From Candidatus Vampirococcus lugosii (lineage in GTDB: Bacteria; Patescibacteriota; Gracilibacteria; Absconditabacterales; Absconditicoccaceae), in NCBI RefSeq assembly GCF_018420025.1, contig NZ_JAEDAM010000083.1:1-5908 (forward strand): a DNA stretch of 5,908 nt. The letters run 5' to 3'. A program made the position numbers and the translations under genes. Within the stretch, counting starts at the first letter, position 1, and every line of letters starts with the position of its first letter. Positions 481 to 5,908 of the stretch are shown in pieces. The notes beneath the pieces were generated by a model. The model did no database searches. It saw only the letters and a list, made by a program, of their open reading frames with translations, and was not told where the DNA came from.

Positions 481-2031
481 TTAAAATAATTCTATGAGGT
501 AAATTAATTTTTGTAAATTTCTATCTGACAATAAATCTTTTTTTGATTGATAAAAATCATTTAATTGTCATTCCAAATTATTAATTTGTAAATTTTCTAA
601 TATTTCATATAATGAATGTATTTTTTTTGTATCTTTTTGAGTTAATAAATAAAACTTTTCTTTATCAGTATTAATTTCTGTATCAATATTATTTTCTGTA
701 TCAATATTATTTTCTTTTTTTGTATAAATATCTTTTTCTGTATAATCCATTTTTAGATTTATTTTTTCTCATATATTTACATTTTTAGTTTCTCATTTAC
801 TGTTTATGAATTTTAAATTAATTTTTTTTAAATCTTCAATCATAGATTCTATTGAATTAGAATTTATATTACATATATCAAAATATTTACATAAAAAATC
901 ATTAAGTTCTGCTAAATTATTTTCATATGTAATATGATTTTCAATAAATCCTATAAATCAATCTCAAAGATTTTCTTTTAAAGATCTAGCAAGTATTTGA
1001 GGACATTTATTTATCAAATGATTCATATTATCATTTATATATTTATTTCTATGTTCAAAATCTTCAAATTTTATCCATCATTCTTTATAATGGCTTAAAT
1101 TAAGACATATTTTGTCTACTCCAAAATAACTATAATCTATTTCATTTCAATCTCAATTATCATCAAATGTTGGATCATAATATTTTCAATCCATTTTTAT
1201 CCAAGAATGCAAATATCAATCAACTCTTATATCACTGTTTAATATACTTTGTATCTCTCATACTATTCTTTCTCAATCAATTCATAAAAGTCTAGCAAAA
1301 AAAAGATAACTTAATACATATCAATCACAAACATTTTTTCATTTTTCCAAAAAATTTCATAATCTCCATGGTCCCATGTCTTTCGGTAGATTCTCTAATT
1401 TATTCAATATATCATAATCATATTCAGTATTGGAAATAATATATTCATAAATTGATTTTTTTAAATCTCATTTTTCTTTATTTAAATTATTTATTTGTTC
1501 CAAATTGGAATCAATTTTATCTTTATTTTCTTCAATATATTTTATATCAAAATTTGTATAATTATTCATTGATATATATAAGTTATTATTACTTACATAA
1601 CATTCATTTCATACATTTCATCAACCCAAAGCTTTTAAATCATAATTATTTACAAATAATAAATGTTCATATGCATCCATATATTTTTTATTTATTGTTA
1701 GTTGTTGACAAATAGATTTTTTTAATTTATTTTTTTTCCTGATTAATGCAGAATATTTATTTCATTCTTTCAAAATAAGTATATCAGAATTATCCAAAGA
1801 AAATTGATCTTTAAGTATTTGTTCATCCGTTTTATTTTCTATCATATAATATGATACACTTCATAAAATAATATAAGAATTTCATTGATTTGATGTATAA
1901 ATTTTGTTTGAATATATTCAGTCATTTATATCTATTATTTCATAATTTTTATTTAAATAATCAAAAAAATTAGCAAAACTCATTCAAAACATTATTCCCC
2001 AAAATATAAATAGACTTATTAATATTTTCAT
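481..2031 (-). CDS. Secreted or membrane-anchored transglutaminase-like (Cys-His-Asp papain-fold) domain protein with coiled-coil-like regions, 516 aa.
   Basis: ATG at 2031-2029 is the first ATG after an in-frame TAA six codons upstream. The stop is TAA at 483-481, and 1551 nt gives 517 codons. There is no in-frame TAA or TAG, and I count about 25 in-frame TGA. The provided 60 aa ORF (568-750) is the C-terminal part of this frame. The N-terminus MKILISLFIFWGIMFGMSFANF is hydrophobic and signal-like. Core motifs: EKGKNVCDGYVLSYLFFARLLGIDGERIVGEI...GYLHSWIKMDGKYYDPTFDD, matching the transglutaminase-like pattern G-x-C...R-x-x-G-I..V-x-G...H-x-W...D-P-T. The Cys codon is at 1329-1327. K/E/N-rich heptad-like stretches lie mid-protein and at the C-terminus. 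Confidence 0.8.
676..715 (-). repeat. In-frame 18 bp perfect tandem repeat of about 2.2 copies inside the 516 aa gene.
   Basis: The plus-strand unit ttctgtatcaatattatt occurs at 676-693 and again identically at 694-711, followed by a partial ttct at 712-715. It encodes ENNIDT-ENNIDT on the minus strand. A diverged third copy (EINTD) follows it in the protein. Confidence 0.9.
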
Positions 2032-2858
2032 ATTATTTTTATAAATTTAGTAAAAAAATTTAATTCATTTAATATTTCTTCCAAAATTTCATCATTATTT
2101 GGCTTTTCTATATCTATCCAAAAAATATATTCAAAAGGATTTTCTTTTGATGGTAAAGATTCTATTTTTGATAAATTAATATTTTTGGTAGCAAAAGATC
2201 ATAAACATTTATATAAAATAGCAGGTTCATCTTTTGTTTTGAATATAATACTTATTTTTCATTTTTTATTTTTGAAATTTTTTATAAATTCATTATTTTC
2301 AAAAATTTCATTATTCATAGATTTATCTTTTATTATAAGAAATCTTGTAGTATTTCATCATTGATCTTGTATGTCGCTATCCAATATATTTAATCAATAT
2401 ATTTCACTACAAAATCCAGATGCAATAGCTCATATACTATCATCTTTTGATTCTGAAATCATTTTGGCAGCTAGTGCTGTATCAGAAAATTCTTGCAATT
2501 TTATTCAATTATTATTTATATATTTTTCACATTGCATAAGTGCTTGAATATGACTATATACTTTTTTTATTTTTGATATATCTTTTGTTTTTGCAAGCAA
2601 TTTATGATTTATCATTTTGTAATATTCTCAAACAATTTCAACATCATTTTCATAAATATGATAAAAGTTTTCATATATAGGTCATGCATAACTATTTTCT
2701 ATAGGAATACATAATAGATTTTTATTATTAATTTTTTGGAAAACATCTTTGAACGAAAAATTTCAATAAATTGAAGTTTCAATATTTAAACTATTTTTTA
2801 ATAATTGTGATACTTCACTTGAATAAGAACCTATTATTCATTGATAATTTATTTTCAT
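2019..2858 (-). CDS. pheA: Prephenate dehydratase (monofunctional PDT catalytic domain plus C-terminal ACT domain), 279 aa.
   Basis: ATG at 2858-2856 and TAA at 2021-2019; 840 nt gives 280 codons. Translation with TGA=G: MKINYQGIIGSYSSEVSQLL...CIPIENSYAGPIYENF...EIVGEYYKMINHKLLAK...KVYSHIQALMQCEKYI...FSDTALAAKMI...IGAIASGFCSEIYGLNILDSDIQDQGGNTTRFLII...ISIIFKTKDEPAILYKCLGSFATKNINLSKIESLPSKENPFEYIFWIDIE...FIKIIGKY*. This matches PDT hallmarks as I recall them: YQG-x-x-G-S/A-x-S, P-I-E-N-S-x-x-G, G-E, SHPQAL-QC, DTA-AA, AIAS, Y-G-L, N-x-TRF, ESRP-x-x-x-NPWEY-F-x-D, and L-G-S-Y at the end. I count 12 in-frame TGA, and most sit on those conserved Gly positions. Confidence 0.9.
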
Positions 2859-2888
2859 ATACAATAATTTATTATATAAATTTTTTCT

Positions 2889-3794
2889 TTATTTCCATAT
2901 GATATGATCATCATCTCAAATTAATGGACTATTCAAAATTCTAAATTTTTTATTTGTATTCCATATATCAACTAATTTATCAAAATTTTTATCTACTTCC
3001 AACATTAAATTAGCTAGTTCATCAATTTCTTCAAAATCTTTTTCCGTAAATTTATCAAATTTATTTCAAATATAATATGGTGCTTGAAGATATAAAATTT
3101 CATTATTCATTAAACTATGAAAATCATAAAAAACAGCCCAAAGAACTGGTAATAATCATTTATAACCTCAAGCATTAATAAAATTATCAGCATTTAATTT
3201 TCATTGTCTAATTCATAACCAAGTATTTGCAGACCAATCAAATTTTTCTTCAGGAATATTATATTGATCAAAATCAAGGAAATCTTCAAAAAATCAATCA
3301 GCATCAAAATTAATCCATTTTTTTTGATTTTGGTCCCAATATTGATTTATCCAATGATCCCAACTTCAATCAGAAAAATATGGAGCAAATCATGAACGAA
3401 CTCTACAAGGAATATTTTTTGATTTCAAAATTGTTGCCATTAATATCGCAACATAACGACAAGTTACAACAATTTTATCTTCAACTTTTCTATCTTTATG
3501 AAATCATTTATCGTCAAGTCTTAATAATTCTGCAATCATTGAAACAGAATTAGGTAAGATATCATCTTCACATCTTAATCTATGCCATGGAAATTTTTCC
3601 ATATCTCAATAAATTAAATTTTTATTTGCATTTGTATTAAGATCTCTTAATGTTACTCTATGAATAATTTGATGACTTATTAAATTTCATAATTGTTTTA
3701 CATCATCTGGTAAGCTCTTTAAAAAATTTTCATAACAACCTGGATTTGTAAATACACTAAAATTTAAATAATGATTTAATATATTTTCATTCAT
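2889..3794 (-). CDS. Cytoplasmic-type transglutaminase-like domain protein (Cys-His-Asp core), 301 aa.
   Basis: ATG at 3794-3792 and TAA at 2891-2889; 906 nt gives 302 codons. I count 12 in-frame TGA and no TAA or TAG. Translation: MNENILNHYLNFSVFTNPGCYENFLKSLPDDVKQLGNLISHQIIHRVTLRDL...DKIVVTCRYVAILMATILKSKNIPCRVRSGFAPYFSDGSWDHWINQYWDQNQKKWINFDADGFFEDF...IGDDDHIIWK*. The pattern C-R-x-x-A...IP-x-R-V-R-x-G-F...D-H-W...W-x-x-F-D-A-D is the transglutaminase-like core arrangement. There is no N-terminal hydrophobic segment. Ten Trp are already encoded by TGG. Confidence 0.8.
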
Positions 3795-3945
3795 ACAAAA
3801 TAATATTTAGATATATAAATATCTTTATATATTATATTAATTTTTTAAAAAAACAATACAAAATAAAAAAAATATCAAAAATATAAAGATATGTTTAATA
3901 AATGATATTCAAAAAAGGAATATAAAATAAGTAATTTTAAATTAT

Positions 3946-4087
3946 GTAGTACAAAAAATATTTTTATTTTCTCGCAAATCCTTGATTTAAATCAAGATTT
4001 AGAAGAAAATAAAATTATAAAATTTGTGTACTACACAAATCTATTTTTATTTTCTTGCAAATCCTTGTCTAAATCAAGGATTTAGAA
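3946..4087 (+). repeat. Two tandem ~60 nt direct repeats in the divergent intergenic region. Function is unknown; they are candidates for a small-RNA or leader element.
   Basis: R1 (3946-4004) is gtagtacaaaaaatatttttattttctcgcaaatccttgatttaaatcaagatttagaa. R2 (4028-4087) is gtactacacaaatctatttttattttcttgcaaatccttgtctaaatcaaggatttagaa. By eye they are about 85% identical with a few indels, and a 23 nt AT-rich spacer separates them. Each copy contains a stem-loop built on the AAATCCTTG/CAAG(G)ATTT arms. Confidence 0.75.
3962..4014 (+). other. Extended hairpin in repeat copy R1.
   Basis: The outer 11 bp arms are perfectly complementary: ttttattttct (3962-3972) pairs with agaaaataaaa (4004-4014). 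They enclose the perfect 16 nt palindrome cttgatttaaatcaag (3981-3996). The structure is inferred from complementarity only. Confidence 0.55.
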
Positions 4088-4095
4088 ATTTTGTT
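4059..4095 (+). other. Stem-loop followed by a T-tract in repeat copy R2. It resembles an intrinsic terminator or attenuator on the plus strand, but no plus-strand gene lies upstream.
   Basis: A perfect 9 bp stem joins aaatccttg (4059-4067) to caaggattt (4075-4083), with the 7 nt loop tctaaat. The sequence agaaattttgtt follows at 4084-4095. On the minus strand no U-tract would follow the hairpin. Confidence 0.4.
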
Positions 4096-4186
4096 CTACA
4101 AAGATGAGGTTAAATTAAAATTTCTATTGATATTTTTTTATTTTTATATATTAAATGTTTAATTTATTGTATAAAATTTAATCTTA

Positions 4187-4558
4187 ATGATTATAAATAA
4201 AGAAAGATATTGAGATATCAATATTTGAAAATTAATTATATTATCAATATCGATAATATTGGCAGTATGGTTGATATGAATATTGTTATATTTCAATATA
4301 AAATACCAAAAAACGGTTGTGTTATACTCAGCATTATGAAATATAGATACTGCTTCTCAAATTTTAATAGATTTAGATATATGTGATGAAGATTCTAAAA
4401 ATATTAAAATTACTTATAATGCAATTTCTTCCAAATATACATTAGATTGTGACTTAATAGAATGAACTATTCAAGATTATAAAATACAAGAATTAACTGA
4501 TTTAAACACAATTAATGCTACGACATGAAAAGCAATTTATTCTATACCTGATAAATAA
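4187..4558 (+). CDS. Small single-pass membrane-anchored protein of unknown function, 123 aa (paralogue 1 of a tandem family).
   Basis: ATG at 4187 and TAA at 4556-4558; 372 nt gives 124 codons. Six in-frame TGA and no TAA or TAG. Translation: MIINKERYGDINIGKLIILSISIILAVWLIGILLYFNIKYQKTVVLYSALGNIDTASQILIDLDICDEDSKNIKITYNAISSKYTLDCDLIEGTIQDYKIQELTDLNTINATTGKAIYSIPDK*. It has one hydrophobic helix followed by an ~80 aa two-Cys domain. That domain is about 45% identical to the next gene over the ASQ..CDL core. Confidence 0.7.
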
Positions 4559-4572
4559 TTATCAAAAATATG

Positions 4573-4600
4573 TTGACTTATAAGATAATATATTTATTAT
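4573..4600 (+). promoter_or_regulatory. Candidate sigma70-type promoter for the 4635 gene.
   Basis: TTGACT (4573-4578), a 16 nt spacer, then TATTAT (4595-4600). The -10 element ends 34 nt upstream of the ATG at 4635. Matches to -10 elements are cheap in DNA this AT-rich, but the G/C-containing -35 hexamer is less so. Confidence 0.3.
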
Positions 4601-4634
4601 TAAGATAATAAATTTATATTTAAAATATATAATT

Positions 4635-5024
4635 ATGAGCAAAAATAAAAAGAATAATTCAAAAAAGCATATTAACGATTTTAAATTTTTGTTTATAATA
4701 TTTGTTGTAGCTATTATAACTATATTAACAATGGCTTGTTATTTTAAAAAAAATACTGTAGAAGTTTTTAGTTATTGAATGATGACTGATATAAATATAG
4801 CATCACAGACTATGATAGATTTTGATGTATGTAAAAAAGATTCGTCTCAAATTTCATTAGAATATAATAACATGAAAAATAATTATAATTTGAGTTGTGA
4901 TTTGAATTTATCGGAATTTGAGAAATATATTTGGAAAATACAAGAAAATCAAAATATTAAAATACTAAACATTAGTTCTACAGGAGCTATATATGAATAT
5001 AAATGATTAACAAAAAGTAATTAA
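4635..5024 (+). CDS. Small single-pass membrane-anchored protein of unknown function, 129 aa (paralogue 2).
   Basis: ATG at 4635 and TAA at 5022-5024; 390 nt gives 130 codons. The provided 75 aa ORF (4779-5006) is the interior of this frame, bounded on both sides by TGA codons. Translation: MSKNKKNNSKKHINDFKFLFIIFVVAIITILTMACYFKKNTVEVFSYGMMTDINIASQTMIDFDVCKKDSSQISLEYNNMKNNYNLSCDLNLSEFEKYIWKIQENQNIKILNISSTGAIYEYKGLTKSN*. It has a basic N-terminus, a TM helix, and the same two-Cys domain as paralogue 1, with 21 residues between the Cys in both. Confidence 0.75.
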
Positions 5025-5036
5025 TAAAAAAATCTA

Positions 5037-5064
5037 TTGAAAAATATATAAAATATTGTATACT
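5037..5064 (+). promoter_or_regulatory. Candidate sigma70-type promoter for the 5117 gene. It overlaps a TGTATACTACA box.
   Basis: TTGAAA (5037-5042), a 16 nt spacer, then TATACT (5059-5064) with TG at 5057-5058 directly abutting the -10 hexamer. The ATG at 5117 lies 52 nt downstream. The AT-rich background makes this weak. Confidence 0.25.
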
Positions 5065-5116
5065 ACAATTGAATAGTAATTATGCAATTTTTTATATATT
5101 TTTAAAAAAAATAAAT

Positions 5117-5908
5117 ATGTCAAATATATATTATATGTTAACATTTACAATAATGTTTAGTTTGGTAGTATTATTAGTTTTTACTATTAGGTCTTTTATG
5201 CTAACAAATGATGCTTATTATTGAGTAAGTTTTGTGTCTATCAATAAAAATTATCAAATAGATACTTTGGACAATATTGATTATGATTCTGAAAACATTA
5301 TTTTTGTAAAAAATATTCCTCAATCTTGTATAGATGATTCTAATCATTCTATATATTGTTTATCAGATTTAAAAAAAAAATGATGATTTTATAATGGAAA
5401 ATGGTTCAAAGGCGAAGATGTTGGTTCTATAAATAATAATTCTTGTAATATAATAGTAGAAAATTGAGAAAGTATACAAACTGCAATAGATAAAGCTAAA
5501 GAAGATTATGTAATATGTTTAAAATCTTGAAATTATGAAGGAGATTTGGAAATAACAAAAGAATGAATTGTTTTAATTAGTATAGGTGAAGATAATGTTC
5601 AAATAGAATGAGACATTGTCTTGTCTGGTGTAGATGAAGATGATTTTAAAATAATTAATATAAGTAATAATTCTTGTGATATAACTGTAGAAAATTGAGA
5701 AAGTATACAAACTGCAATAGATGATGCTCAAGAAGATTATGTGATATGTGTAAAATCTTGAACTTATAAAGAGAATTTAGAAATAGATAAAAAATGAATT
5801 GCTTTAATAGGTGTCGGTACAGATAGATCAATATTGGATGGTACAGATATTAATGAACATTGAATATATATTTATAATTTTGATAATATTGAAATTAAAA
5901 ATATTGAA
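5117..5908 (+). CDS. Membrane-anchored surface protein with a duplicated parallel beta-helix (pectin-lyase-fold, NosD/CASH-like) N-cap module. The 3' end runs off the window.
   Basis: ATG at 5117, open through 5908 for 264 codons. I count 11 in-frame TGA and no TAA or TAG. Translation: MSNIYYMLTFTIMFSLVVLLVFTIRSFMLTNDAYYGVSFVSINKNYQIDTLDNIDYDSENIIFVKNIPQSCIDDSNHSIYCLSDLKKKGGFYNGKWFKGEDVGSINNNSCNIIVENGESIQTAIDKAKEDYVICLKSGNYEGDLEITKEGIVLISIGEDNVQIEGDIVLSGVDEDDFKIINISNNSCDITVENGESIQTAIDDAQEDYVICVKSGTYKENLEIDKKGIALIGVGTDRSILDGTDINEHGIYIYNFDNIEIKNIE... The string SIQxAIDxAxxxDxIxVxxGTYxExLxIxKxIxLxGxG....ldG is the familiar start of right-handed beta-helix surface proteins. Confidence 0.85.
5435..5896 (+). 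repeat. Intragenic tandem duplication of a 231 nt (77 codon) unit, two copies.
   Basis: Copy 1 spans 5435-5665 and copy 2 spans 5666-5896, an offset of exactly 231 nt. The first ~95 nt of each copy differ at about 8 positions and include a 36 nt perfect run (5456-5491 = 5687-5722). The remainder is much more diverged but stays in register at the protein level. Confidence 0.85.

Follow-up and report, generated by a model that had tools for sequence, protein, structure and literature searches.

Archaeal type IV pilins and archaellins (PF07790, PF01917) carry class III signal peptides that are cut by FlaK/PibD-type peptidases, and an N-terminus more conserved than the globular part that follows it is typical of pilins; in modular pilins and tip adhesins, such as PilB and PilC of Streptococcus sanguinis, a functional domain is attached to a pilin module. 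Surface contact is the means by which Vampirococcus and its relatives kill prey. Here we describe a window (the whole stretch of DNA analysed) that is a complete 5908-bp contig of the ultra-small predatory bacterium Candidatus Vampirococcus lugosii, and which ends in three consecutive plus-strand genes (genes 1 to 3, Table 1), each encoding a short tail and a single hydrophobic helix followed by a domain with two Cys residues. We propose, with a probability of roughly 0.55, a divergent type IV filament-like system specific to this lineage, with genes 1 and 2 supplying its pilin-like subunits and gene 3 joining the terminal protein of the array to a beta-helix surface domain. The data as a whole point to an undescribed pilus-like surface apparatus in the Vampirococcus lineage.

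The window has a G+C content of about 19%; translation with table 11 fragments all of its genes, whereas table 25, in which TGA is a sense codon, gives long open reading frames (ORFs), and the same table was used in the V. lugosii genome paper (PMC8080830). TGA is read here as Gly: in genes 1 to 3 it stands opposite Gly in the orthologues, many of these codons being GGN, and never opposite TGG. The gene 1 product, which corresponds exactly to the NCBI protein P0002 (a hypothetical protein of Ca. Vampirococcus lugosii), consists of a putative leader MIINKERYG (Gly9 being a TGA codon), then DINIGKLIILSISIILAVWLIGILLYF, then a globular domain ending in AIYSIPDK. Cys66 and Cys88, with 21 residues in between, occur in gene 1 and gene 2 alike; the Cys-containing motif reads YTLDCDL in gene 1 and YNLSCDL in gene 2, with IYCLSDL in gene 3, and the C-terminal motifs of genes 1 and 2 are TGKAIY and TGAIY, respectively. 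The first-pass annotation, made from the letters of this DNA, had described three membrane-anchored plus-strand genes with these motifs and Cys spacings, and all of them are present on re-reading. Its view that genes 1 and 2 are paralogous, at about 45% identity in the core, is borne out as well: they are true paralogues, with 32% identity over 109 aa in BLASTP (E=1e-14), or 38% over 101 aa, and 17 of 35 identical positions (49%) in the ASQ..CDL core. Their globular domain matched no named family in Pfam and NCBIfam scans, which covered genes 1 and 2 and five further family members, in agreement with the annotation's own failure to place it.

Word-indexed searches started from genes 1 and 2 yielded nothing beyond the queries themselves and their Trp-translated copies and missed distant homologues, while an exhaustive HMMER search with an ectodomain profile found three small homologues. 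Two kinds of match were rejected: three giant proteins with repeats that the exhaustive search had also returned (P0004, P0008 and P0009), whose stretches score 2-13 bits each without the Cys pattern and whose totals are summed repeats, and L005, matched in the genome scan, a protein from a Clostridia metagenome-assembled genome that uses the standard code, has no Cys pair and was matched through its transmembrane (TM) helix and the search pattern alone. Iterative searching of table-25 ORFs with a hidden Markov model (HMM) extended the family to 15 members, spread over the window and six related loci, all in TGA-recoded relatives of Vampirococcus, which we infer to be Absconditabacteria-type. 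The proteins are 115-148 aa long and share the conserved Cys pair, and some members have a second, C-terminal pair. The three small homologues, the closest relatives of the V. lugosii genes, lie on a contig of a TGA-recoded metagenome-assembled genome, L002 (GCA_964483725.1), which carries five paralogues, a 103-aa gene and, after these, the gene of a large surface protein. Gene 1 shares 61% identity with its orthologue L002_9851 and scores 147 bits on the family HMM; gene 2 is 38% identical to L002_10301 (E=7e-25) and scores 130 bits. The first-pass annotation had taken the array for a local amplification in V. lugosii, a claim that does not hold, as the relative has five paralogues plus the module and the V. 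lugosii array is the reduced one.

The assembly that holds this relative (L002/L004, contig CAZACQ010000021.1) is labelled 'uncultured Candidatus Peribacteria bacterium', yet its genes require sense TGA, and this name is probably mistaken. Public copies of the small proteins in Logan and ENA (P0001, P0003, P0005, P0006, P0007 and P0010) show Trp where the gene has TGA or end prematurely there, P0007 for instance having 90 aa instead of 120, and such mistranslation weakens homology searches for organisms with code 25. Together with the distant homologues missed by word-indexed searches, this helps explain why the family has gone unnoticed.

The array in the relatives is linked to a cluster that encodes a divergent ATPase of the type II/IV secretion kind. 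Directly 5' of the array on L002 lie a 697-aa T2SSE-family ATPase (5709-7802; PF00437, 36.7 bits, cut-off 24.9), a protein that combines a TM helix with an SH3 domain, and a 172-aa polytopic membrane protein. The best NCBIfam match of the ATPase is ComGA and its nearest solved relatives are BfpD, PilT, GspE and PilB; a weak match to TraJ (E=0.0066) was also obtained. Orthologues of this ATPase (50-68% identity) led to seven more loci, and the array adjoins the ATPase cluster in six loci (L002, L007, L010, L011, L013 and L014). The conserved set comprises a 358-aa protein with three TM helices, a membrane protein of about 155 aa, the ATPase, the SH3 protein and a polytopic protein of about 165 aa that carries invariant Asp residues. 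The Walker A motif of the ATPase reads GKTNSWKST, with a TGG-encoded Trp at the place of the second Gly in the canonical GxxxxGK[ST]. This Trp is kept in all six orthologues examined (L002, L006, L007, L008, L010 and L013) and is thus a feature of the lineage and not a sequencing error.

The linkage of small genes with large surface proteins, noted in the first-pass annotation, is conserved across the related genomes, so the lack of synteny that it had named as its own counter-evidence is not what was found. In the large surface protein of L002 (11886-13742), residues 557-605 weakly match (10 bits) the C...ISYN...Y-x-x-E-C core of the small family, and the two may share a module or resemble each other by chance. 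An 82-bit match of the iterated HMM to the same protein, L002_11886, was discarded as an artefact of self-inclusion, the clean model giving 10 bits.

Conservation in the gene 1/2 family is highest at the N-terminus, which reads [KR]-x-[G/A/S] followed by D-E-N-I-G-K-L-I-V-F-A-I-T-I-V-I-A-I-G. All but one of 14 members (13 of 14) carry G, A or S at the putative -1 position, and identity across genomes amounts to 57% in the N-terminal segment as against 24% in the globular part. The best Pfam matches of two members, both below threshold, are Pilin_N (E=0.0025, 19.1 bits against 25.2) and Arch_flagellin, aligned from profile position 1 (E=0.067, 14 bits against 29.5). When a 43-column N-terminal profile was compared with all PDB sequences, the archaellin 5z1l came out on top (E=0.052), and five of the nine matches with E up to 10 were archaellins, all aligned across the known signal-peptidase site and in one register, with KKGASGIGTLIVFIAMVLVAA opposite kRsGdeniGkLIvfsitiviAv. 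No PDB match was obtained with a control profile, which represented the TM segment of the gene 3 module family. Membership in the archaeal pilins or archaellins is not established by these scores, and the signal appears specific and consistent. What the first-pass annotation called a cytoplasmic tail with a TM helix looks, in the gene 1/2 family, like an archaeal-type (class III) prepilin signal. Its alternative outcome, that the small domain would turn out to be a standard pseudopilin, was approached by this pilin-like N-terminus, although no standard pseudopilin family was matched.

Gene 3 is built differently. Its N-terminal module consists of a TM helix, YYG, Cys70 and Cys80 (a 9-residue spacing) and a GGFYNGKWF motif, and the claim that it shares a module with genes 1 and 2 did not survive comparison: BLASTP gave E values of 0.08-7, the family HMM about 3 bits and HHalign a probability of 0.4%, with or without the TM segment, none of them significant. 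Judged from these comparisons, the module is a separate conserved family whose kinship to the gene 1/2 family is not demonstrable. Residues 1-102 are 66% identical to L002_11553, a stand-alone protein of 103 aa with its own stop codon, and iterative HMM searching of table-25 ORFs found eight members of the module family in eight loci, namely the window and seven relatives. The small-gene array invariably closes with this module, which is a gene of its own in each of the seven relatives and is joined to a beta-helix solely in V. lugosii. At two loci (L013, 15111-17111; L014, 12793-14718) an ankyrin-repeat protein of about 650 aa separates the gene 3-type module from the pilin-like genes.

After the module, gene 3 continues into a right-handed beta-helix, of which the window holds the start. 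Its C-terminal part matches Pfam Pectinesterase in two stretches (37.4 bits, above the cut-off of 27), as expected from the first-pass annotation, which had the third gene continuing into a beta-helix, and matches NosD and beta_helix models of NCBIfam. The N-terminal cap unit of the helix is present twice in tandem as a direct repeat of 167 nt with 84% DNA identity and a period of 231 nt; as protein, the two copies are about 51% identical. Residues 185-264 of gene 3 match residues 473-554 of the orthologue L006_4758 with 61% identity; this 1076-aa Beta_helix/NosD protein (Beta_helix 50.7 bits, NosD 40.6 bits) sits in L006 two genes 3' of the module gene. Relative to L006, the V. lugosii fusion skips one gene and about 470 codons. 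Gene 3 thereby joins components that are encoded separately in like clusters, which suggests that both act together. With only the first helix turns inside the window, the beta-helix could equally be an adhesin or an enzyme.

In the mechanism that we propose, the N-terminal hydrophobic helix would insert each small protein into the membrane, a membrane peptidase would probably cleave it at the conserved [KR]-x-[G/A/S] site, and a PilB/GspE-family ATPase machine would extract the subunits and polymerise them into an extracellular fibre with the disulfide-stabilised globular domains on its exterior. The polytopic protein of about 165 aa could act as the peptidase and the 358-aa protein as the platform, as their size, topology and genomic position would allow. 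Gene 3 would contribute the conserved last protein of the array, which in the relatives is followed by large surface proteins, and the V. lugosii fusion would present an adhesin or a glycan-active domain on or beside the fibre.

Several results weigh against this proposal. None of the pilin, pseudopilin and archaellin models reached its curated threshold for any member scanned, the family lacks the signature of bacterial prepilins, which combines Gly at -1 with Phe or Met at +1 and Glu at +5, and HHalign of the family with E. coli GspG gave a probability of 0.6%. In gene 2 the N-terminal motif is degenerate, with Ser at the putative -1 position. AlphaFold predicts a long N-terminal helix and four strands at low confidence (pLDDT, the predicted local distance difference test score, of 53 and 62), and a Foldseek search with the structure models returned nothing significant. 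The putative peptidase matched Peptidase_A24 with E=6, had no PDB match and reached 0.2% in HHalign with GspO, and the putative platform was negative as a GspF/PilC protein in Pfam, in a PDB profile search and in HHalign with E. coli GspF. The Trp in the Walker A motif leaves the activity of the ATPase uncertain. In the V. lugosii window itself no ATPase is encoded in the 4.2 kb 5' of the array, the contig ends on the 3' side, and a V. lugosii orthologue of the cluster ATPase is absent from the ATPase search results.

Alternatively, the small proteins would be uncleaved bitopic proteins with the N-terminus inside and the C-terminus outside, serving not as polymerising subunits but either as static display or host-contact modules, as the first reading of the locus had it, or as accessories of the ATPase machine in the manner of PilN/PilO or GspL/GspM. 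Basic residues precede the hydrophobic helix as in a signal anchor, the sub-threshold pilin scores and the missing Glu at +5 fit such a protein, no prepilin peptidase has been confirmed, and linkage to an ATPase cluster suits accessories equally well as subunits. A simple anchor, however, leaves unexplained the small residue conserved at one fixed position of the tail and the I-G-x-L-I-V-F motif in the register of archaellins. Alignment components, moreover, are usually encoded by one or two genes, whereas here up to five fast-diverging paralogues stand in a row, and the N-terminus is far more conserved than the ectodomain. We regard uncleaved proteins as the main rival explanation, though a less likely one, and subunits of a pilus-like filament appear to fit the sequences better than static membrane-tethered display modules. 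A quite different assignment, in which the array belongs to a conjugation-like type IV secretion system (T4SS) of the Patescibacteria type and the small proteins are VirB8-like, VirB3-like or other T4SS membrane parts, would account for the T4SS_pilin (PF18895) gene at the left end of the contig, and arrays of pilin genes near T4SS genes have been reported among Candidate Phyla Radiation (CPR) bacteria (bioRxiv 10.1101/2025.01.22.634366). The ATPase and VirB11 also fall in one Pfam family, with the weak TraJ match pointing the same way. That T4SS_pilin gene, however, lies 3.9 kb away on the opposite strand with unrelated genes between; VirB4, VirB6 and VirD4 were called in none of the related loci, the ATPase of about 700 aa is closest to the filament and type II proteins listed above and to ComGA, and the small proteins have no VirB2, VirB3 or VirB8 match. 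A T4SS origin of the array is accordingly rated as highly improbable.

A separate doubt concerns gene 3, in which both the fusion and the internal duplication could be artefacts of amplification or assembly, the module and the beta-helix being separate genes in reality. The genome was obtained from cells amplified by multiple displacement amplification (MDA) and multiple annealing and looping-based amplification cycles (MALBAC) (PMC8080830), the module is stand-alone everywhere else, the fusion omits a gene and several hundred codons when set against L006, and the NCBI contig and the contig of a second assembly (Logan SRR13241708) both stop in or just after the 231-nt repeat. The Logan assembly nevertheless spans the fusion junction at 99.8% identity before it breaks inside the first cap unit, and no stop codon interrupts the frame where module and beta-helix meet. 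Between the repeat copies, at 84% identity, there are differences at all codon positions, whereas an amplification chimera would give identical copies. An artefact is for these reasons considered unlikely, and gene 3 of V. lugosii looks like a real fusion of the module with a beta-helix domain, in DNA that was amplified.

If the array encodes dedicated filament subunits, and if the fusion marks a surface protein that the filament carries, these genes would be concrete candidates for the contact machinery; the diversity of type IV filaments would be extended to archaeal-like subunits in bacteria. A machine of the novel subtype outlined further below might be the organelle with which the predator attaches to its prey or feeds on it where the two touch. 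The accessible text of the V. lugosii genome paper mentions type IV pili and giant surface proteins only generically (PMC8080830), the text of its supplements, as far as accessible, contains no list of pilus genes, and type IV pili are treated only in generic statements in the accessible literature on these lineages.

Table 1. Features of the 5908-bp window of Ca. Vampirococcus lugosii (translation table 25)
Feature	Position	Strand	Remarks
T4SS_pilin (PF18895) gene	3-320	minus	27.8 bits against a cut-off of 26.6; cut by the left contig end
Transglutaminase-like protein, 516 aa	481-2031	minus	
Prephenate dehydratase	2019-2858	minus	PDT E=1e-46 and a weak ACT domain match
Transglutaminase-like protein, 301 aa	2889-3794	minus	
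Divergent intergenic region, about 390 bp	3795-4186		AT-rich; 5' of gene 1
Hairpin, copy 1	3944-4034		91 nt, near-perfect
Hairpin, partial second copy	4027-4103		83 nt 3' of copy 1
Gene 1, 123 aa	4187-4558	plus	table 25 ORF
Gene 2, 129 aa	4635-5024	plus	table 25 ORF
Gene 3, 264 aa	5117 to beyond 5908	plus	table 25 ORF; open at the contig end
Gene 3, N-terminal module (residues 1-102)	5117-5422	plus	TM helix and small two-Cys domain
Gene 3, beta-helix part	5426-5908	plus	Pfam/NCBIfam matches; contig stops after unit B
Gene 3, cap unit A	about 5428-5594	plus	
Gene 3, cap unit B	about 5659-5825	plus	

The remaining genes of the window lie on the minus strand. The T4SS_pilin gene at the contig end is of the VirB2-like kind reported to be widespread in CPR bacteria. 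The prephenate dehydratase gene between the two transglutaminase-like genes (481-3794) is unexpected in an organism described as dependent on its host for all amino acids. The intergenic region 5' of gene 1 contains a hairpin with the terminal inverted repeats GTAGTAC...GTACTAC and a partial second copy of it; the segment 3940-4105 folds with -46.3 kcal/mol (z=-8.9), and for copy 1 by itself z is -6.9 (plus strand) and -8.2 (minus strand). The hairpin had no Rfam match, contained no tRNA and was not found in the relatives, and matches of hairpin 18-mers in metagenome and viral collections were dismissed as chance, none of them including the full hairpin. It may be regulatory.

Set beside the described systems, the locus resembles the comGC-GG, gspG-K and fimU-pilVWXE operons in that tandem, fast-diverging small paralogues with an N-terminal helix lie beside a PilB/GspE/ComGA-family ATPase and membrane proteins. 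It differs from these bacterial minor-pilin and pseudopilin operons in its lack of the G/F/E+5 motif, of a match to N_methyl or pseudopilin models and of a positive HHalign comparison with GspG, and no PilC/GspF or PilD/GspO homologue was confirmed in the clusters of the relatives. The cluster ATPase is nearer to the bacterial PilB, GspE and BfpD than to the archaeal FlaI, by scores too low to decide. With the archaeal pilins and archaellins the family shares a short basic leader ending in a small residue, I-G-x-L-I-V-F and a helix of about 22 residues in the same register, as well as a small globular domain after the helix; unlike them it scores below the thresholds, its globular domain matches nothing known, the organism is a bacterium and cleavage is putative. 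Gene 3 resembles the modular pilins in joining a small membrane-anchored module of the array to a large functional domain, the beta-helix, although here the module lacks a leader and shows no match to pilin models or to the gene 1/2 family. Unlike in typical right-handed beta-helix proteins, the cap unit of gene 3 is duplicated, and only the first turns lie within the window; like such proteins (Pectinesterase, NosD, Beta_helix), its C-terminal part scores above threshold, as does L006_4758. Tentatively, we may be dealing with an undescribed subtype of type IV filament in TGA-recoded predatory CPR bacteria, which would combine archaeal-type prepilin N-termini with a new two-Cys globular domain, an ATPase with a conserved Trp in Walker A, and a platform and peptidase too divergent for current models, and which would present large beta-helix or InlB-repeat proteins, one of them fused in V. 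lugosii to a subunit-like module.

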